Sequence record: OL631480
Direction: 5' to 3' (one strand)
DNA: 64,000 bases
Source of the DNA: Escherichia phage ECML-123-2
Shown here: positions 39,703-47,936 of the stretch, piece after piece
Layout of the letters: every line of letters starts with the position of its first letter
How positions within the stretch are numbered: the stretch's first letter is position 1
Program-made: the position numbers and the translations under genes
The notes under the pieces: model-generated
What the model saw: only the letters and a program-made list of their open reading frames with translations
Databases searched by the model: none
What the model was told of the DNA's origin: nothing

Positions 39703-40160
39703 TTTTGGTCAGAAAAAGAAATTTGAGTTTCAAGCCATTCAATGTACTCTGCGGCAGCTTGCATCAGGTTACCTTCATAGCCATCGTTATTTTCTTGCGC
39801 AGCTAATTTAGCTAATGCGTATGAAATACGTTCACCTTGAAAAGCGGCTTTAGGCTTCTGAACATCTTGGCTAGTTCTCTCTACAACTTCTTCAATTTCG
39901 CCATTTTCAACGGATTCAGTATTCCATAAACACCAGTATGTAATTGGCTTATCATAGATGTTAATAATCTTTCCGTCGGAAAGTTCAATTTCAATAATTC
40001 CAGTATCAGGTTCTATATCATCTTCGCATTCTTTTGCAAGTTCACGAACTTTAAAGACAGTACCTGCACTAAGTTCCGGCCAGTAATTACATAGCCCTGT
40101 ATCAACACGATTAATTCTAAACCACTTATCTACTGTAATCATGTCCCATCTCCATATCAA
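39657..40160 (-). CDS. hypothetical protein at the pin-locus position (Pin-like by position only)
   Basis: 167-aa ORF ending ...QKIRQYKRLHQMFYNT. Confidence 0.55.
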   Translation of the reverse strand: MIWRWDMITVDKWFRINRVDTGLCNYWPELSAGTVFKVRELAKECEDDIEPDTGIIEIELSDGKIINIYDKPITYWCLWNTESVENGEIEEVVERTSQDVQKPKAAFQGERISYALAKLAAQENNDGYEGNLMQAAAEYIEWLETQISFSDQKIRQYKRLHQMFYNT

Positions 40161-40264
40161 TTAAGTCATTTATCGTTGGTTCATTATATACTGTTTCTTC
40201 ATCAGTGTAAACCGGTTCTTCCGGCTCTGGCTCTACAGTTTCCCATCTAGCCGCCCACCAAGGT

Positions 40265-40435
40265 TTAACCCCGAAGCTTATTAAGTTCTTCATAATCAAT
40301 CCAGGATTCTAATCCTGATGGCAAATCAGATTCAATTTCCCAAAGAAGCTCTTCAATTTTCTGAAGACGATCTAGTTCTTCGGCTGGAATAGTAACCATT
40401 GACGGAGCTCGTGATACATTAATATCGTAAATCAT
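40265..40435 (-). CDS. small hypothetical protein (56 aa), possibly part of a frameshifted longer gene
   Basis: MIYDINVSRAPSMVTIPAEELDRLQKIEELLWEIESDL...; an open frame without ATG continues downstream in another frame. Confidence 0.35.
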   Translation of the reverse strand: MIYDINVSRAPSMVTIPAEELDRLQKIEELLWEIESDLPSGLESWIDYEELNKLRG

Positions 40436-40437
40436 AT

Positions 40438-40653
40438 TTACCCCAATTTAACCATACAATCGCCGTATTTCCACTTAGAAATAGACTTTTCACCATTAGA
40501 ATAATAAACTTCGAGTTTAGCACGATTATTTTTAATTTGAATAACCTTGGCTGTCATCAAAGTTCCATACCCATAATAAACTGCAACTTCATCACCTACA
40601 TATACCGCGCTTCCGCGGTAATCATGAATATAGTCAGTTCCTTCAAGCATCAT
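40438..40653 (-). CDS. hypothetical protein
   Basis: 71-aa ORF. Confidence 0.5.
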   Translation of the reverse strand: MMLEGTDYIHDYRGSAVYVGDEVAVYYGYGTLMTAKVIQIKNNRAKLEVYYSNGEKSISKWKYGDCMVKLG

Positions 40654-40913
40654 TTAAAATATTCTCGCAGTTGGTCAAATCCACCAATATGACTTCCATC
40701 AGGAGCAAATACCTGGGGCATTGTCAAGCCGATTTGAGTATCACGACCTAGTTTAGTCAGAAGCTCAGCAATTTTCTCATCATCAAAAACACCTTTTTCC
40801 GGCATAATGTTGATAAATTCAAACGGCTGTTTCTTCACGGTCAAAAGACGTTTTGCATTATCGCAATACACACATTTATGAATGTTGCTATCATAACCAT
40901 ATACTTTAAACAT
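40650..40913 (-). CDS. nrdC: thioredoxin/glutaredoxin NrdC
   Basis: 87 aa MFKVYGYDSNIHKCVYCDNAKRLL... with CVYC; matches recalled T4 NrdC. Confidence 0.92.
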   Translation of the reverse strand: MFKVYGYDSNIHKCVYCDNAKRLLTVKKQPFEFINIMPEKGVFDDEKIAELLTKLGRDTQIGLTMPQVFAPDGSHIGGFDQLREYFK

Positions 40914-40914
40914 A

Positions 40915-41157
40915 TTATTCCTTAATTCCTAGTACTTGTTTAAAAGTCTCGTCGTAATCAAGACTTTGGCCCGTTTGTTCTTTATGTTTGTATATAATAT
41001 CACTTACTTCTGATAGCATATTTTTATATGAACGAGTTAAAGCAGATTTAAGCACGCTGTATCTATCAGGAAATTTACCGTGTTCATTATAATAAGCTAT
41101 TGCTAATTCACGGACTGCCTTTTCAGCAGCCTCCATATATTCTTTACGCTTGGTCAT
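40915..41157 (-). CDS. hypothetical protein (nrdC.1 position)
   Basis: 80-aa ORF. Confidence 0.55.
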
Positions 41158-41159
41158 TT

Positions 41160-41549
41160 TTAATCCAAAATATTATTAGGCATTGGTTGAACACTCACAA
41201 GTTCTTTAAAGAACTCAGTAGAGTCAGGCAATTTAACCATTTCCGGAGCATGCTTACTGAATTTATGTTTACATTGACGGCATTTATATTCAAGCTCTGG
41301 TTTACGCCAGTTAATCAACTGAACTTGTTCAGTACCGCATTCAGGGCAATTAGGAACGTTTTTAGAAGCTCTTTCACGTCGTTCAACCATAGCCATAATA
41401 GCATCCCATGCTGGAGGTTTAAAATCTAAATCGTCGCAGCCGTGAATCTTTCCACGCATTTCCATATCATCTTCCTCACCAGCCATAATAATTTTAATTA
41501 AACTGGAATTACTTGAAGCTGCAATGTCTTCTAATAAACGCTTTTTCAT
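41160..41549 (-). CDS. hypothetical zinc-ribbon protein (nrdC.2 position)
   Basis: 129 aa with CPECGTEQ...CRQCKHKF. Confidence 0.55.
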
Positions 41550-42475
41550 TTCAATACCTCAATAGCATTACGTAAACCATTTGCTTTTGCATTAAGAGCT
41601 TTTAACAATTTGGTGTGTTCTGCAATTTGGGCTTCAACTTCAATCAAACGGGCATTGAGATATTCACGTTCTTCACTCAGATTATCAACCTTTTCTACTT
41701 TAGGCTCTTTTACAACTGTCTTATATGTATTAGGGTTCTTCAATTTAATTAGAATGCGTGAACTGTATAACATTGAACCATTATCTTCGGTTTCGTCATA
41801 CATTTCCACTACGTCCATAATTTTTAACATCATGCGGAGTTTATAAGACAACGAACGAATAGTTTTGTTGTGCTTATTAATTTCTTTAGCTGTCATGGTG
41901 CCAAGATTACGTGAGTAATAATAAGGAACCTGGATATTAATTAATACTGATGAACCACCTGGCTTGTGTGTTACTTCATCAGCAATAACCCAGTCCTTAA
42001 CATGAACTGTATTTGTACGGTCATCGCCCGCGGTAAATAGTTTGCGAGCATGCTTAAAAAGCATATTCACTTGGTCATTTAATTGACAAGCAAATTTATC
42101 AGCAAATTTAGTTTCAGGAATGGTAGAAAACCAATCAGCCAAATGAGTCTTTTTAACATCATTAACAATAGTAAATTCAACCAAATCGGTTATAGATGTC
42201 TCAGATTTAATGAAGCTCGGCTTCATAAAGTTTTTAATGTTCTCATGAGCTACAGTAGAAGATAACATACGAGAACGTTTAAACCATTCAAGCAAATTGC
42301 CTAACGAATGAGAATAAGCGTTTTGAGTATCTTTACAGATATGATTTTCCTGACCAACATATTGAAGGAAATCACGAAGAATATTATTGATTACTGCTCT
42401 GTGCCCGATCTGATAATTACGGTGTTTAGTAATAAGACTGTCAAAATAATCAATATAATGTTTACGAGTTTTCAT
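41546..42475 (-). CDS. hypothetical protein with C-terminal coiled coil (paralog family member 1)
   Basis: 309 aa; C-terminus [42 protein letters not shown]. Confidence 0.6.
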   Translation of the reverse strand: MKTRKHYIDYFDSLITKHRNYQIGHRAVINNILRDFLQYVGQENHICKDTQNAYSHSLGNLLEWFKRSRMLSSTVAHENIKNFMKPSFIKSETSITDLVEFTIVNDVKKTHLADWFSTIPETKFADKFACQLNDQVNMLFKHARKLFTAGDDRTNTVHVKDWVIADEVTHKPGGSSVLINIQVPYYYSRNLGTMTAKEINKHNKTIRSLSYKLRMMLKIMDVVEMYDETEDNGSMLYSSRILIKLKNPNTYKTVVKEPKVEKVDNLSEEREYLNARLIEVEAQIAEHTKLLKALNAKANGLRNAIEVLK

Positions 42476-42527
42476 ATTCTTCTCACTTGGTTAATGGTTT
42501 ATACTCCGAGCCATCCTTGGCTTTAAA

Positions 42528-43529
42528 TTACTTAATTAACTGTAAAGCTTGTTCAAGACGATCAAGACGATTAACGGATTCTTCCCAAATCTTTTTAGCC
42601 TGCTCATATTCTTTCTGCGCTTTATTAGAAATTTCTAGAACTTCTTTATAAGCTTTTTCTAGTGCAATAACTTCTGGACGAATTTCTACTGGTTCAGGCG
42701 AATCGTCAAGACATTCCATTAGTTCCTCAAGGGTAGTTTCTTCTTTAGGAGTATTCACAATTTCATCACATTTTTGTTGGTAAATTTCTTTATCAGTCGG
42801 TGAGTACGCACACTTTACTTCACGGAGACTAACTACAATTTTATATCCTTCCCAACCGCATATATTCTTAAAAGGATAAGTATGAATATTTTCTACTGTT
42901 TCCATACAAAGTAATGCGGTCTCTAACTGACGAGTTATATCGCTAGCAATTGAGAAAAATTTATTAATGTTCTTTTGATTAGCTTCTGGTGTAAAAAATT
43001 CATAATTCACAAAAATAGCTGCTTTATTTTTATCAAGCTCATATTCTTTTATGATAATCATATCAGAAGCCCAAGGATGGATTTGACGATAATCACCATA
43101 GCATAATTTAGAAGCTGATTTTAGAATTTGCTTCTTGAAAAGTCTAAAATTACTAATCCAACGACGAGTAAAAATATTCTCAGGGTCTTCTTTATTATTA
43201 AGATGATAAGAATTAACATCACCGAACCAACTGTATCCTACTACATCTTTAGTTCGTTTAATTTCTTTCCCAAATTTACCAAGAATATCTTGATTAACTA
43301 AATATGAAAGAAGACGAGAACCTTTAAAAGTTTCCTTAATATCATCTTTATATTCGCGACTAGAAATTTTATGAACTTCATGAATAAATTTGCTTGAAGA
43401 AACAATACTTGCATCAATATTATTGAGCCATTGATTGATAATGGAAATAACACTATTCTGACTAAACACAGGTTTAACTTTATCATCAATAACGCTATTG
43501 AATGATTTGATATATTCGTTACGAGTCAT
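42528..43529 (-). CDS. hypothetical protein with C-terminal coiled coil (paralog family member 2)
   Basis: 333 aa from ATG at 43529 (SD ggagattaat); motif FKKQILKSASKLCYG. Confidence 0.6.
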   Translation of the reverse strand: MTRNEYIKSFNSVIDDKVKPVFSQNSVISIINQWLNNIDASIVSSSKFIHEVHKISSREYKDDIKETFKGSRLLSYLVNQDILGKFGKEIKRTKDVVGYSWFGDVNSYHLNNKEDPENIFTRRWISNFRLFKKQILKSASKLCYGDYRQIHPWASDMIIIKEYELDKNKAAIFVNYEFFTPEANQKNINKFFSIASDITRQLETALLCMETVENIHTYPFKNICGWEGYKIVVSLREVKCAYSPTDKEIYQQKCDEIVNTPKEETTLEELMECLDDSPEPVEIRPEVIALEKAYKEVLEISNKAQKEYEQAKKIWEESVNRLDRLEQALQLIK

Positions 43530-43557
43530 ATTAATCTCCTCAGTAGAAAGTAAGAAC

Positions 43558-43587
43558 ATTATACCACATCCTTGTGGCAAAGTAAAC
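43558..43587 (-). promoter_or_regulatory. T4-type early promoter, near-identical to the rIIA.1 promoter
   Basis: minus GTTTACtttgccacaaggatgtggTATAAT. Confidence 0.5.
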
Positions 43588-44606
43588 TAGTTTAGTGCAT
43601 TTAGTGCATTGTTCAGTTTAGAACGTTGCTTCGTAAGATTTTTGACTTTTTCTTGAGCTTTTTCTAGCATCTTTTCAGCTTCTAACACTTCATTAGTTGC
43701 TTTAACGAGTTCATCATCTACTGCCTTGATAGACTTCTCAATCGCATCCGCGTGCCATTTTTCAACAGGTTTAAGACTCGGATTTTCAACAGGAAGAAAA
43801 TTCACTTTATTGAATTTCCATGTATCTTTATTACCTGAACTATACATCCAAAATTTAGGATCGTTTGATGAGTAATTGGATAAATTTAAGATATCTTGCA
43901 CTTCCTGCTTTTTCTCTTGCGGGACTTCGTCCTTTCTCAAAAAATCGTATTTAAATGAAACGATCATATCAAGTTCATACGTTGTTGTATGTTCCCAATT
44001 TCGCTCAAAACGAGGTAAAATCTTAGACTGAACCGCGGCAACTACATCCATATACTTAAATGCTTCTGTCAACTGTGATTTAAGGCATTCACAAATTGAA
44101 AGAGAATTTTTTGTATTAGGTTTAAAGCTAATTCGTGCAGTTCTGTTATTTTCTTTTAATGGTCTTACTTCCATCTGAAGAGTATAACCATCAAATTTCA
44201 GATTCTTTAAGTTAATATCAGAACCTTTTAATCGACTAGCCGTCGACAAAATTTGCTTTAATTGTTTACGGAATAGAGCAATAAATCTCCACTCAATACG
44301 ATAATGATTTGGATTGAAAAATCCAGATGATAAATCGACCTTACTCTGACCAACACCTTGAACAAATAGAGGATTTTTATAATCAATAGTTTTACAGAAA
44401 TCAGTGAGCTGCTCACGAGCAGTCATTTGTGTAATATACCCCGCTTTACTAAAATGACGTAATAATTCACTGCTATTTAGATATTTAAAGTGAATAGCAC
44501 GATTAACTTTATCAGGGTCTAAATTATTTTCACACAAAAATGTCATAACATTACGAGTATCGCTGCCAGTACGAACCATATCTTCAATTTGAGAACGAGT
44601 TTTCAT
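43587..44606 (-). CDS. hypothetical protein with C-terminal coiled coil (paralog family member 3)
   Basis: 339 aa; motif FRKQLKQILSTASRLKG. Confidence 0.6.
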   Translation of the reverse strand: MKTRSQIEDMVRTGSDTRNVMTFLCENNLDPDKVNRAIHFKYLNSSELLRHFSKAGYITQMTAREQLTDFCKTIDYKNPLFVQGVGQSKVDLSSGFFNPNHYRIEWRFIALFRKQLKQILSTASRLKGSDINLKNLKFDGYTLQMEVRPLKENNRTARISFKPNTKNSLSICECLKSQLTEAFKYMDVVAAVQSKILPRFERNWEHTTTYELDMIVSFKYDFLRKDEVPQEKKQEVQDILNLSNYSSNDPKFWMYSSGNKDTWKFNKVNFLPVENPSLKPVEKWHADAIEKSIKAVDDELVKATNEVLEAEKMLEKAQEKVKNLTKQRSKLNNALNALN

Positions 44607-44614
44607 GGTGTTCC

Positions 44615-45526
44615 TTAAGATTTAAGTAAATCAACAATTTTAATTAACTTTTCACGCTCAGATTTAGCTTTACTACTCAGTCCAGATAGTCTGAAAATTT
44701 CATCATCATATTGTTGAATAGAAATATTCAGCTCTTCAATCTGTTTATTAAAATAATCAATTTGTTCAGAATGTTTTTCGTTACTACGAACTGGTACAGG
44801 TTTTGTAGGCAATTTAGTTGAACTGGATTCATCCGGGCGATAAATTAAAACACAACTTGAACCAATAGGGCATTTTGCACCAGATGAATATTCTAATGTT
44901 CCAGCTTCTTTTAAAACTTCAAAAGCTAAACAGAGATGATGCCCCATATTAACATAATCTGTAGAGCGAGCTCTGATGTAATAATCATCGCCGCGAATAC
45001 TAAATTTAAAGCATTTAAGGTCTTCTGTATTATTGGTCTTAAAAATCATTTGTTTATCTAGACCTTTAGCTAATCGAGCGCCTAATGCTAATAATCGTCT
45101 TTGATTTTCCCACAAATCCGCAATCATTTGATCGAATGATAATTTTGGCATTAGTCGACCATAAAGGTCATATCCTTTATTATAATTACGAAGGATTTCA
45201 CTCGCATTAATACGAGACAATGCTCCAATTTTATTAAGGGCTTTCATAATGCGATTAGATAAACTCATTCCAGATCCGTTTGTTCGCTGCAAATGTTTTT
45301 CTAATCCAAATCCAATATCAACTTTAAACTTATCTAAAATTTCTGCATGAACATCTCTGTCAATAACATTCAAATCCAAAGTTGAGTTAAATCTATGAAA
45401 AAATTTATCTGGCTCTGCACTGCGAAATACAGTCCATTCATTCATCATTTTTTTATTAACTAAAGATTTAATTACTGCATTGACATTATTAATTACTACT
45501 GACATATTTTCCTCACTCAATTTCAA
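44615..45526 (-). CDS. hypothetical protein with C-terminal coiled coil (paralog family member 4)
   Basis: 303 aa; motif NQRRLLALGARLAKG. Confidence 0.6.
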   Translation of the reverse strand: MKLSEENMSVVINNVNAVIKSLVNKKMMNEWTVFRSAEPDKFFHRFNSTLDLNVIDRDVHAEILDKFKVDIGFGLEKHLQRTNGSGMSLSNRIMKALNKIGALSRINASEILRNYNKGYDLYGRLMPKLSFDQMIADLWENQRRLLALGARLAKGLDKQMIFKTNNTEDLKCFKFSIRGDDYYIRARSTDYVNMGHHLCLAFEVLKEAGTLEYSSGAKCPIGSSCVLIYRPDESSSTKLPTKPVPVRSNEKHSEQIDYFNKQIEELNISIQQYDDEIFRLSGLSSKAKSEREKLIKIVDLLKS

Positions 45527-45920
45527 TTTTACTAAATATACAGAATAAGATGGAACAGACTATATAAGCACCACACACAGATTGAACTAATACCATTCCA
45601 AAGAACCAAACAATATTATCAAACAATGTCTGTTTTACGTCGAAAGGACGTAAACTTACAGTAATATTATCACCTTTTTCTATTGAAGAATACATCTCTG
45701 GGGAAATATATTCACTAAATCTATAACCATCTTTGAGTTCATATACGGCAATAAACGATAAACTAGACCCTTTTCCTTGTGTTCCTGTAATGGTATTAAC
45801 TACAGTAACATCATAATCTTTATAATGCATATAATCATTAATTGCGTAATAACCATATGCAATTACTACACATAAACAACATATCAATAAATTCAATCTT
45901 TTAATTATCAACTGTTTCAT
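45513..45920 (-). CDS. membrane protein
   Basis: 135 aa with hydrophobic segments at both ends. Confidence 0.55.
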   Translation of the reverse strand: MKQLIIKRLNLLICCLCVVIAYGYYAINDYMHYKDYDVTVVNTITGTQGKGSSLSFIAVYELKDGYRFSEYISPEMYSSIEKGDNITVSLRPFDVKQTLFDNIVWFFGMVLVQSVCGAYIVCSILFCIFSKIEIE

Positions 45921-45975
45921 AATAATCTCAATTAAAAGGGCTTAGAACCATTATACCATCCTTGGTATAAAGCGG

Positions 45976-46503
45976 TTATGCGAGTACCGTCTTTAACCGT
46001 TCTTCAAACTTCCGAAGAGTATTTTGGCGTTCAGCTCTTTGCTTTTTGTAAGTTTCAATACGCTCTGAAATGAGAGTGTATCGTTCATTTACTGATTCTT
46101 TCATAAAATCAGGAATTTCACGAGAAGCTTTAATCTCGTCAAATTTATCAATAACAGCTTGCTCTTCAGCAATTAAGTTATCATACATTAAAATATCTTT
46201 CTTGATAAACTCAATATCTTCTTGAGTTACACGAGATAATTTAGATGCTTTATCCTTTTTGTACTGTTCGTTAGTATCACGAGACCAGTGTAATGTACGA
46301 TTTTTATTCGTATTTTTGTAAATTTCTACAATACCGATCTCATCGATAATAACGATCCAATTCCAACGGGATTTGTAAATTTGTCCTCCATCAACAGTGA
46401 TTTCACCTCCGATTGAGATGTCATTAAAGAACTTGCTTTGCGCTTCAGATTTAAATTTACCATCGTTGTAATTTACTAAGTTGAAAATATCTTTAGCGTT
46501 CAT
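45976..46503 (-). CDS. hypothetical protein
   Basis: 175-aa ORF with SD ggagga and early promoter. Confidence 0.6.
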   Translation of the reverse strand: MNAKDIFNLVNYNDGKFKSEAQSKFFNDISIGGEITVDGGQIYKSRWNWIVIIDEIGIVEIYKNTNKNRTLHWSRDTNEQYKKDKASKLSRVTQEDIEFIKKDILMYDNLIAEEQAVIDKFDEIKASREIPDFMKESVNERYTLISERIETYKKQRAERQNTLRKFEERLKTVLA

Positions 46504-46531
46504 TTTCTGTTCCTCCGTAGTTGATAGTTGT

Positions 46532-46561
46532 ATAGTACCACAGAGGAACAGTCTTGTAAAC
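46532..46561 (-). promoter_or_regulatory. T4-type early promoter
   Basis: minus GTTTACaagactgttcctctgtggTACTAT. Confidence 0.5.
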
Positions 46562-46563
46562 CA

Positions 46564-46878
46564 CTAAAAGAAACTTCTTTCACAATTTTTTCCACTGAAC
46601 CATGCGCTTACCGCTTTCTTAGTCTCAGGAGCAGTGTTATCCATAAACCATTCAAAGGCAGCCTTTTTATGATTCTGGAGGGCTTCTCGGGCTTTAATCT
46701 GCTCACGGTCTATTAACACTAACATATGAGCCTTTCTTGTCACCATGGGCTTCTTATGATTTTTTGAATACTCCCAGTCATTTGTCCATCGCATTGTCGT
46801 TGCGAACTTAAATACTGCTTCTTTAATTTTAGTTTCGTAAATTTCACGAGCCTTTGAGTATAACATCATTACCTCCAT
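46564..46878 (-). CDS. hypothetical protein
   Basis: 104-aa ORF. Confidence 0.55.
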   Translation of the reverse strand: MEVMMLYSKAREIYETKIKEAVFKFATTMRWTNDWEYSKNHKKPMVTRKAHMLVLIDREQIKAREALQNHKKAAFEWFMDNTAPETKKAVSAWFSGKNCERSFF

Positions 46879-46967
46879 TCACCAGTTTAATTCTAGTCAT
46901 CTTTTTAATGGCAGTCCATATAATCTATTTCTGAACTGCCTTTTTGTCATAGAAGTCCTCTTATGAA

Positions 46968-47936
46968 TTATTTCAGAAGAGTAACCTCAGCAATTTCTTC
47001 CCAACCGTTTTTGTCGGTCATAATAAAGTCAGCAAGATAAAGAGCAGTACGCAGTGAAACATTGCGTAAACGATTAACATTAACTTTCATCCATGATAAT
47101 GCTTTATAAGTTTCTTCATCAGAAAGACCGCGCTTTTGCATCATGTCAGTTGAAAGAATAACATCTTCAACCCTGACCATAATTTCTTCATTAGTGTGAA
47201 CACCCAAATCCAAATAAACCGAGCGGGACACTAATGCTTGTAAATGTGGAGCAAGTTTAGTACCACGGTCTAATTCGCGGTCAATGTCAACGTTTGTGAT
47301 AAAAACAATCGTTCCTTTAAATTCAAACTCACGCTCAATGCCTTTTTCTTCTAAGTAAGAAGACGCAGTGCTCCAGCAGACTTTACGGGTCTCTCCGGTG
47401 TCCAGAGCAGCTTTCAGAAGATTAAGAATGTCCATATCAGAGAAAACATCCACATCATCAATCAAAAGGACAGAATTCTCTTCACGATTATTCCAAAGCT
47501 GTTCATAAAGACCAATACCAGAGATTTTACCATTAATGCTTTTATATTCAATGTATCCAATATCATTTGCTTTATTTAAAGCTTTATCTAAAGAATACGT
47601 TTTACCAATGCCTGCCGCACCAGAGATAATTAATGAACGAATGTTTCCGTTAATAATACCATTCGTCATCATTCCCATAACATTAAATCTTTTATTAATG
47701 CGGGTTTTCATATCTTCATACGATTCTTTAACTTCTTCAACTTTTACACCATCATATGAAATGTCTGATTTGTAAACCCAAACACCGCGACGTTTACCGT
47801 CAATTTCAACAAAAACTTTACCATCTCCTTGTGCATCTACTGGAGCATTATCTGGGAACCATTCGCCTAAGAGCTCAAAAGTTCCAGAGATTTCTTTACC
47901 GAAGTAGATACCCTTATTGATAGTTACAGTTTTCAT
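46968..47936 (-). CDS. P-loop NTPase (AAA-like), nrdC.10 position
   Basis: 322 aa from ATG at 47936; Walker A GAAGIGKT, Walker B VLLIDDVD; own early promoter. Confidence 0.65.
   Translation of the reverse strand: MKTVTINKGIYFGKEISGTFELLGEWFPDNAPVDAQGDGKVFVEIDGKRRGVWVYKSDISYDGVKVEEVKESYEDMKTRINKRFNVMGMMTNGIINGNIRSLIISGAAGIGKTYSLDKALNKANDIGYIEYKSINGKISGIGLYEQLWNNREENSVLLIDDVDVFSDMDILNLLKAALDTGETRKVCWSTASSYLEEKGIEREFEFKGTIVFITNVDIDRELDRGTKLAPHLQALVSRSVYLDLGVHTNEEIMVRVEDVILSTDMMQKRGLSDEETYKALSWMKVNVNRLRNVSLRTALYLADFIMTDKNGWEEIAEVTLLK

Follow-up and report, generated by a model that had tools for sequence, protein, structure and literature searches.

The nrdC.3–nrdC.6 array of T4-like phages: a putative family of diverged tandem paralogues that includes the anti-Dsr1 gene nrdC.5

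Four adjoining early genes of a T4-like phage appear to form one family of divergent paralogues with a common architecture. One member, nrdC.5, is known from T4 to counteract the Dsr1 sirtuin (SIR2) defence (Srikant, Guegler and Laub, eLife 2022; PMC9391042). The original prediction of such a family is supported by BLASTP and profile–profile links, with nrdC.6 as the least certain member. Because nrdC.5 disarms Dsr1 and the four genes would constitute a single family, nrdC.3, nrdC.4 and nrdC.6 are good counter-defence candidates.

The 64,000-nt stretch of DNA analysed here (the window) comes from a Tequatrovirus, a T4-like phage, and matches Tequatrovirus genomes at 99.9% at the DNA level. Gene-by-gene correspondence with T4 identifies genes A, B, C and D as the orthologues of nrdC.3, nrdC.4, nrdC.5 and nrdC.6, respectively (Table 1). 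They had been called as consecutive open reading frames (ORFs) of 309, 333, 339 and 303 aa; the four do adjoin one another on the minus strand, but D is likely 296 aa long. As first called, D occupies 44615–45526 on the minus strand and starts at a TTG (45526). Its most likely start is instead the ATG at 45505, which we chose because it has a GAGG Shine-Dalgarno sequence, lies 7 nt past the nrdC.7 stop, and gives the Met-Ser start common to all orthologues. A predicted promoter of early type lies in the nrdC.5–nrdC.4 spacer upstream of nrdC.4, followed by AGGAG and then the nrdC.4 ATG. Together with the designation of nrdC.5 as an early gene by Srikant et al. (PMC9391042), it bears out the assignment of the array to an early region. 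An Rfam search of positions 40000–47000 found no RNA families.

Table 1. Features of the nrdC.3–nrdC.6 array (positions in the window)
Feature	Coordinates	Strand	Family or basis
Gene A, nrdC.3 orthologue, 309 aa	41546..42475	-	phrog_1435; PF26897
Gene A motif helix	42026-42067	-	
Gene A M-D-V-V helix	41798-41824	-	
Gene A linker	41690-41737	-	
Gene A C-terminal heptad helix	41549-41689	-	
Gene B, nrdC.4 orthologue, 333 aa	42528..43529	-	phrog_1435
Gene B motif helix	43095-43139	-	
Gene B M-E-T-V helix	42885-42911	-	
Gene B linker	42672-42755	-	
Gene B C-terminal heptad helix	42531-42671	-	
Gene C, nrdC.5 orthologue, 339 aa	43587..44606	-	DUF7235/PF23882; phrog_2351
Gene C motif helix	44223-44273	-	
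Gene C M-D-V-V helix	44031-44057	-	
Gene C disordered linker	43758-43943	-	
Gene C C-terminal helix	43590-43757	-	
Gene D, nrdC.6 orthologue, 296 aa from ATG 45505 (most likely start)	44615..45505	-	phrog_2257; PF26899
Gene D motif helix	45062-45106	-	
Gene D central helix	44903-44929	-	
Gene D linker	44777-44833	-	
Gene D C-terminal helix	44618-44776	-	
Predicted sigma-70 early-type promoter, GTTTAC-17 nt-TATAAT with extended TG	43558..43586	-	consensus match

Protein family databases divide these genes. PHROG profiles place A (E = 1.4e-114) and B (E = 2e-166) at full length in phrog_1435, and C and D in one further family each. Pfam splits the genes into three separate families. Gene C matches DUF7235, the NrdC.5 family, over its full length (416.1 bits, E = 1.3e-124; gathering score 30 bits), while genes A, B and D remain without a DUF7235 match when the cut-off is relaxed to E ≤ 1. 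Protein database entries related to A are assigned PF26897, and those related to D are assigned PF26899. No thioredoxin family is among the Pfam and NCBIfam matches of the four genes. The label ‘thioredoxin’ is found in many GenBank records, on all eight genes under the genome match, and in our reading was taken over from gene names that reflect position (nrdC.N). The comparison thus brings to light a widespread mis-annotation of nrdC.3–6.

On sequence comparison, nrdC.3 and nrdC.4 are certainly homologous: A and B are linked by BLASTP (E = 2.5e-5) and by profile–profile comparison (97.6%, E = 2.6e-12). The case for homology of nrdC.5 to these two is strong. The B and C families are joined by profile–profile comparison (74%, E = 2.7e-5) across 166 mid-protein columns, and a profile of single-copy genes (see next paragraph), stripped of linker and coiled coil, matches A/B/C at 98.6% (E = 1.2e-15). 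None of ten negative controls, for which we used reversed alignments and two unrelated families (nrdC.10 and nrdC.11), fell below E = 0.06. The likeness of the proteins thus exceeds coiled-coil composition.

Single-copy relatives, one per genome and about 315–348 aa long, occur in other Tevenvirinae genera and in Marfavirus. These include ORF091 of EcS1 and genes of Serratia phages X20/CHI14, Kosakonia phage 305, Enterobacter phage IME523, and Klebsiella phages Marfa, Metamorpho and Mineola, all annotated as hypothetical. They resemble nrdC.3–6 in architecture and size and have profile links of 99.3% to A/B/C and 94% to D, but stand alone where the window has an array. In EcS1 (Kagamiyamavirus) and a Jiaodavirus-like Klebsiella phage, the single copy was confirmed to lie in the slot between homologues of nrdC and nrdC.10/nrdC.11, a synteny also seen in the window, T4, Mosigvirus, Dhakavirus and Gaprivervirus. 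Phages of the T-even group carry two to four diverged copies: nrdC.3,.4,.5 and.6 in Tequatrovirus;.6, sometimes.5, and.3 in Mosigvirus; and.6,.5 and.4 in Dhakavirus and Gaprivervirus. The family is very narrow, with 23 matches among 1.84 billion representative proteins. A search of viral contigs gave no relatives for P0217 and only its own genome for P0221.

Within the T-even group, alleles have been exchanged. Gene C shares 92% protein identity with T4 nrdC.5 at the same genome position; gene A shares only 60% with T4 nrdC.3 but 77% with a Mosigvirus copy, and the nrdC.2/nrdC.3 segment of the window is a mosaic replacement. Natural chimeras also occur (e.g., P0093, with the nrdC.5 helix on a different N-terminal part). 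Gene-wide dN/dS against T4 is 0.06–0.31, below 1 for all four genes, and gives no sign of positive selection. By these comparisons, nrdC.3–6 are both maintained and shuffled. In laboratory T4, a frameshift in nrdC.6 removes the terminal helix, which shows this gene to be dispensable on laboratory hosts, an observation that is neutral as to an anti-defence role.

The first reading of the sequence knew no function for any of the four genes and guessed at counter-defence; the former is outdated for nrdC.5. Growth of T4 clones with deletions spanning nrdC.5 is normal on MG1655 and fails solely on hosts with dsr1, and expression of nrdC.5 restores plating of the T4 deletion mutant on Escherichia coli with dsr1 (PMC9391042). 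Counter-defence is therefore established by genetic complementation in T4 for nrdC.5, and for the other three we infer it. Our literature search found no functions for nrdC.3, nrdC.4 or nrdC.6 and, for nrdC.5, anti-Dsr1 and DUF7235, nothing past Srikant et al. 2022; neither a mechanism nor a direct nrdC.5–Dsr1 interaction has been published.

We somewhat favor a model in which an ancestral T4-like early gene gave rise to the array by lineage-specific tandem expansion, its copies having diversified as oligomeric binding inhibitors of host defences. The ancestor would have been a single early gene of T4-like phages that expanded in tandem in the T-even group. Its descendants would encode inhibitors that are produced early in infection and act stoichiometrically, not as enzymes, with a globular part that binds a host immune protein and a terminal helix that, we assume, oligomerises the proteins and adds avidity. 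The Dsr1 sensor recognises the phage major capsid protein (PMC13581612), and by analogy with the action of DSAD1 on DSR2 this sensor domain would be the most likely target of nrdC.5. The paralogues and their divergent alleles may each have adapted to a separate host defence protein or protein variant. An alternative that we consider unlikely is that the proteins serve early infection in a housekeeping or regulatory capacity (e.g., as scaffolds or adaptors for macromolecules of phage or host), the rescue by nrdC.5 on dsr1 hosts being indirect and the paralogues not being devoted to immune inhibition. Such a role would suit the retention of a copy in one genomic position by many genera of T4-like phages, purifying selection on the four genes, and a literature that reports no direct contact with Dsr1; in addition, the N-terminal part of nrdC.3 has a sub-threshold resemblance to the SAM-like core-binding domain found in tyrosine recombinases (E = 0.13 in Pfam and 0.0025 in NCBIfam), a weak hint of nucleic-acid binding. 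However, the T4 deletions matter only on dsr1 hosts and nrdC.5 alone reverses their effect (PMC9391042), a frameshifted nrdC.6 is tolerated by laboratory T4, and variable copy number, presence and absence, allele replacement and chimeras form the pattern of accessory host-range genes rather than of core functions.

Less probable than this alternative is that only nrdC.3, nrdC.4 and nrdC.5 are paralogues and that nrdC.6 is an unrelated neighbour that converged on their size, helical N-terminus and terminal heptad helix. Direct similarity of D to A, B and C is not significant by BLASTP or profile–profile comparison (1.0% without the coiled coil), nrdC.6 is a separate family in both Pfam and PHROGs, and the terminal helices of the families have little specific similarity. 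Bridging sequences from other T4-like genera were therefore needed. The single-copy profile without linker and coiled coil reaches the D family at 79% and E = 1.6e-5 over 77 columns, in contrast to the ten controls described above. We also searched the 380 ORFs of the window with a profile that drew solely on the single-copy genes of other genera and omitted the coiled coil. The four genes took the top four places (B, 2.5e-10; C, 1.8e-6; A, 5.9e-6; D, 8.3e-4), and the next match, at 0.34, followed D after a 400-fold gap. Moreover, the predicted structures of nrdC.6 and nrdC.5 agree in the order and spacing of secondary structure and have one Foldseek match in common, and nrdC.6 adjoins other members in every genus examined. 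We conclude that nrdC.6 is a probable homologue of nrdC.3–5, with moderate confidence in a tie that is transitive through the single-copy profile. Separately, we tested neighbouring proteins of ∼260 aa, from EcS1 and from a Klebsiella phage, as possible counterparts of nrdC.6 and found them unrelated.

All four proteins have the predicted architecture of a helical N-terminal part, a motif, a proline-containing linker and a C-terminal heptad helix. The variable N-terminal part is predicted to lead into a conserved helix pair, a β-hairpin/helix/β-hairpin domain, the linker and the final helix, in this order. The helix pair closes with the motif [FL]-x-x-x-[IL]-L-x-x-[AG]-[SA]-[RK]-L-x-x-G-[DS]-x-[RK]. 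The motif strings originally quoted are all present (residues 137–150 in A, 131–145 in B, 112–128 in C and 141–155 in D); the motif is in register across A, B and C, and that of D is in register against the bridging profile. AlphaFold models were made for C and D, and they show the same secondary-structure order at near-constant offsets, with a long terminal helix (283–338 in C; 253–279 and 285–302 in D) after a low-confidence proline-containing linker. The nrdC.5 model has a moderate pLDDT of 66.8. It was predicted from a shallow alignment because the word-indexed homologue search, run with the combined alignment as query, picked up neither nrdC.4 relatives nor the nrdC.5 variants of Mosigvirus and Dhakavirus. 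In Foldseek, both models match the same ∼326-aa protein of Klebsiella phage Mineola and ∼300–370-aa proteins from other T4-like phages; among solved structures no matching fold was found.

The C-terminal end is a ∼50-residue amphipathic heptad helix that follows the flexible, disordered linker. By our criterion of hydrophobic heptad periodicity along a long helix free of proline and glycine, the best heptad-periodic stretch lies within the last ∼50 residues in 4/4 proteins, with 0.9–1.0 of the a/d positions hydrophobic. The predicted coiled coil is thus borne out as heptad periodicity and predicted long helices, and the label rests on these two. A search of the window for this C-terminal helix as a shared module found it in none of the other ORFs. 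We rejected the terminal helix as evidence of homology; helix profiles built with one family left out recover nrdC.5 alone, a result that likewise gives no indication of a binding partner common to the helices. Least probable of all is that the four proteins join through these helices into one hetero-oligomeric complex, a single machine rather than independent inhibitors: each has a C-terminal heptad helix whose last residues are loosely alike (L-x-x-[AIV]-x-x-[LI]-[KN]), the genes adjoin and are probably co-expressed, and P0093 indicates that the nrdC.5 helix can pair with a different N-terminal part, but the Dsr1 phenotype needs nrdC.5 alone (PMC9391042), one or two members are missing from many phages and distant genera carry just one, T4 nrdC.6 has no terminal helix, and the helices do not identify each other by sequence.

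The outcome usefully refines what is known of these genes. The anti-Dsr1 activity of nrdC.5 was already known; the family-level unification of nrdC.3–6 with a single-copy ancestor, which we propose from sequence profiles, goes beyond the three separate families of Pfam. Three of the four early genes, each of ∼300 aa, have no assigned function although no virulent phage has been studied better than T4. The conserved scaffold (motif helix and predicted β/α/β domain) and the variable parts are now marked for mutagenesis. Extending the inhibitor model, we conjecture more tentatively that nrdC.3–6 form a modular platform against pattern-recognition-type defences, in which a rapidly exchanged recognition surface would be combined with a conserved scaffold and a helix for oligomerisation, with one sensor per paralogue or allele. 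Here, nrdC.5 would block Dsr1/Avs7-type capsid sensors and nrdC.3,.4 and.6 would block other systems. If so, array content would predict T-even host range. More generally, differences in host range among therapeutic T-even phages may be explained in part by which genes and alleles the array contains.

Several known systems invite comparison. T4 tifA, dmd, adfA and ipIII are likewise early, non-essential accessory genes that each neutralise one defence and set host range, but they lie elsewhere in the genome and are unrelated in sequence to nrdC.3–6. To our knowledge, none of them belongs to a tandem family of paralogues encoding multidomain proteins of ∼300 aa. DSAD1 of SPbeta-like Bacillus phages is reported to inhibit DSR2 by binding the sensor region and, like nrdC.5, is a phage protein that turns off a defence-associated sirtuin NADase. 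DSAD1 has no sequence or fold relationship to nrdC.3–6 in any of our searches, and its target senses the tail tube protein whereas Dsr1 senses the major capsid protein. T4 NrdC.5 itself is related to the array by descent: gene C is its orthologue, and genes A, B and D are related to it at the superfamily level only.

The four array genes of ECML-123-2 are already known, annotated T4 genes, and for one of them a counter-defence phenotype is on record. Aligned with the reference annotation of T4, genes A, B, C and D are the orthologues of nrdC.3, nrdC.4, nrdC.5 and nrdC.6, respectively. The array lies on the minus strand, flanked by nrdC.2 and nrdC.7, with endonuclease VII and the NrdC thioredoxin encoded upstream; the segment containing it shares 99.9% identity with Yersinia phage PYps32T and has matches in >700 T4-like genomes. 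The nrdC.N names are positional. Pfam and NCBIfam searches found a thioredoxin domain in none of the four array proteins, and the domain is absent from each of nrdC.2 to nrdC.8 tested. Many GenBank records call all eight genes of the nrdC.1–nrdC.8 region thioredoxin, a label that we take to be an annotation error propagated from the positional gene names.

The original prediction described four ORFs (309, 333, 339 and 303 aa) sharing a mid-protein motif, a proline-containing linker and a C-terminal coiled coil. The ORFs and lengths stand except at the start of gene D, which is most likely an ATG giving 296 aa, because this codon has a GAGG Shine-Dalgarno, lies 7 nt past the nrdC.7 stop and yields the Met-Ser N-terminus of all gene D orthologues. 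The quoted motif strings are present in all four proteins. Likewise, the best heptad-periodic window falls within the last ∼50 residues of every protein, and a proline-containing stretch, of very low confidence in both AlphaFold models (C and D), precedes each terminal helix. Jointly aligned, A, B and C have in common an N-terminal M-(K)-T-R, the motif helix, an M-[DE]-[VT]-V helix and a terminal L-x-x-A-x-x-[LI]-[KN]. The N-terminal helical part of gene A bears a weak likeness to the SAM-like core-binding domain of tyrosine recombinases, far below threshold (Pfam PF02899, E 0.13; NCBIfam XerD-type, E 0.0025, 17 bits), which we treat only as a lead towards possible nucleic-acid binding.

Coordinates of features in and around the nrdC.3–nrdC.6 array
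Feature	Window position	Residues	T4 NC_000866 position
nrdC.1–nrdC.8 region	40900-46500		
Segment matched to T4-like genomes	41000-46000		
Divergent segment (nrdC.2 and part of nrdC.3)	~41100-42350		
nrdC.2 orthologue (129 aa)	41160-41549		
Gene A, SAM-like likeness	42295-42387	30-86	
Gene A, motif		137-150	
Gene B, motif		131-145	
Gene C, motif		112-128	
Gene D, motif		141-155	
nrdC.6, stretch with 1-nt deletion in T4	44615-44730		7997-8894
Gene D, most likely start (ATG)	45505		

Profile comparisons indicate that the array unites three separate Pfam/PHROG families in one superfamily with a single-copy ancestor, which is new. A and B are plainly related: both belong to phrog_1435, BLASTP aligns them with E 2.5e-5, and their family profiles match at 97.6% (E 2.6e-12). 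For B and C, the profiles match along 166 mid-protein columns (74%, E 2.7e-5), and the motif falls in register. Compared directly with A, B and C, D gave nothing significant by BLASTP or profile–profile search; it joins them through a 14-sequence profile of single-copy relatives, which supports the claim of four divergent paralogues, D being the least secure. This single-copy profile matches A/B/C at 99.3% (E 1.6e-20), or 98.6% (E 1.2e-15) with linker and coiled coil removed, and the nrdC.6 family at 94% (E 1.4e-7), or 79% (E 1.6e-5) without the coiled coil. The latter link spans 77 columns, from the helices preceding the motif through the motif helix. None of ten negative controls, whether reversed alignments or the unrelated families of nrdC.10 and nrdC.11, went below E 0.06. 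In the cleanest test, the single-copy profile without coiled coil was searched against the complete set of 380 six-frame window ORFs; the best four were B (2.5e-10), C (1.8e-6), A (5.9e-6) and D (8.3e-4), and the fifth scored 0.34. A terminal-helix profile matched no further window ORF. When one family was left out of such profiles, the nrdC.5 helix alone was recovered; the terminal helices therefore have a common heptad character and little specific sequence. The coiled coil should not be read as evidence for homology.

The superfamily is narrow. An exhaustive search of 1.84 billion representative proteins with the A/B/C alignment returned 23 matches in all, five of them remote full-length members of 315–348 aa. 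One is Escherichia phage EcS1 ORF091 (P0221) and another comes from Klebsiella Marfavirus-type phages (P0212); for the remaining three, the only relatives are distant ones in Klebsiella phages (22–26% identity). Related genes occur in Kagamiyamavirus, Winklervirus, Kanagawavirus, Jiaodavirus and Marfavirus, with one match per matching genome. In both neighbourhoods examined, the single-copy gene holds the position that the array has here, with nrdC on one side and the nrdC.10/nrdC.11 homologues on the other; an adjoining ∼260-aa gene is unrelated to the family.

Lineage-specific expansion and allele shuffling of the superfamily are also new. Tequatrovirus carries four copies, Mosigvirus three (.6-like,.5-like and.3-like; two in one genome, G2285, which lacks the.5-like gene), and Dhakavirus and Gaprivervirus three (.6,.5 and.4). 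The last two genera also encode a 67–71 aa ORF between their nrdC.6-like and nrdC.5-like genes (loci L005, L006, L008 and L009), which is missing from the Tequatrovirus array. Alleles of nrdC.3 diverge sharply: the window protein shares 60% identity with its T4 counterpart and 77% with the protein of Mosigvirus phage moha, suggestive of exchange between genera. Across nrdC.2 and the C-terminal two-thirds of nrdC.3, DNA identity to T4 is 49–80%, flanked by 92–100%, the pattern of a mosaic replacement. The nrdC.2 orthologue, far more divergent from its T4 counterpart than adjacent genes (60% DNA identity, 91 gap positions), has two CxxC pairs and a sub-threshold match to Zn_ribbon_8 (E 6.6e-6, 26.5 bits; cutoff 34.4 bits). 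Gene-wide dN/dS against T4 is 0.31 for nrdC.3, 0.17 for nrdC.4, 0.18 for nrdC.5 and 0.06 for nrdC.6, and therefore all four genes are under purifying selection; dN of the first three is much above that of most neighbours.

Several variants depart from the four-gene arrangement. P0056 (299 aa; contigs up to 167 kb) is a natural chimera that runs from an internal Met of nrdC.5 to the linker (...WKFNKV) and continues as nrdC.3 from the motif (NMLFKHARKLF...) on, implying a deletion of nrdC.4 plus the adjoining halves of nrdC.5 and nrdC.3. In P0093 (173 aa; 803-nt metagenome contig), the C-terminal helix of nrdC.5 follows an N-terminal part of ∼125 aa that is unrelated; over the final ∼55 residues P0093 matches the window protein at 100% identity, suggesting that this helix can move as a module. 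The nrdC.6 orthologue of Shigella phage Sf25 (gp220, P0094; 378 aa) contains an internal tandem duplication of ∼83 residues (IRAHSTDY...QIEEL twice). Reference T4 (locus L001) has a 1-nt deletion in nrdC.6 (GAGCTG-ATATT versus GAGCTGAATATT in the window), which shifts the frame and costs the protein its C-terminal helix. Read in the +1 frame, the 36 codons that remain are intact, and nrdC.6 of laboratory T4 appears truncated, barring sequencing error.

The suggestion of a host-interaction or counter-defence family is partly supported, and nrdC.5 is the sole array gene with a published function. A T4 clone with deletions no longer plates on ECOR17, and deletion of host dsr1 brings plating back; moreover, cloned dsr1 in MG1655 blocks the T4 deletion mutant, and expression of T4 nrdC.5 gives infectivity back (PMC9391042). 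Our literature search found no nrdC.5 work after that study and nothing on nrdC.3, nrdC.4 or nrdC.6. Dsr1, still termed poorly characterised (PMC13464706), is a SIR2 NADase; its sensor domain, which it has in common with Avs7, recognises the phage major capsid protein (PMC13581612). Because T3, R4 and hydrophobic residues make up the invariant positions of A, B and C, and the array proteins match no enzyme family, they are most likely binders, not enzymes. We propose that they act as early-expressed stoichiometric inhibitors; an early-type promoter upstream of nrdC.4 (GTTTAC, 17 nt, TATAAT) fits early expression. The terminal helix would oligomerise the protein and the globular part would bind a host immune protein directly, in the case of nrdC.5 most likely the Dsr1 sensor. 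Paralogues and alleles may be specialised for different targets, which would extend an anti-defence role to nrdC.3, nrdC.4 and nrdC.6. A precedent for sensor-blocking by a phage protein is DSAD1, which binds and blocks a DSR sensor, and to which we liken nrdC.5.
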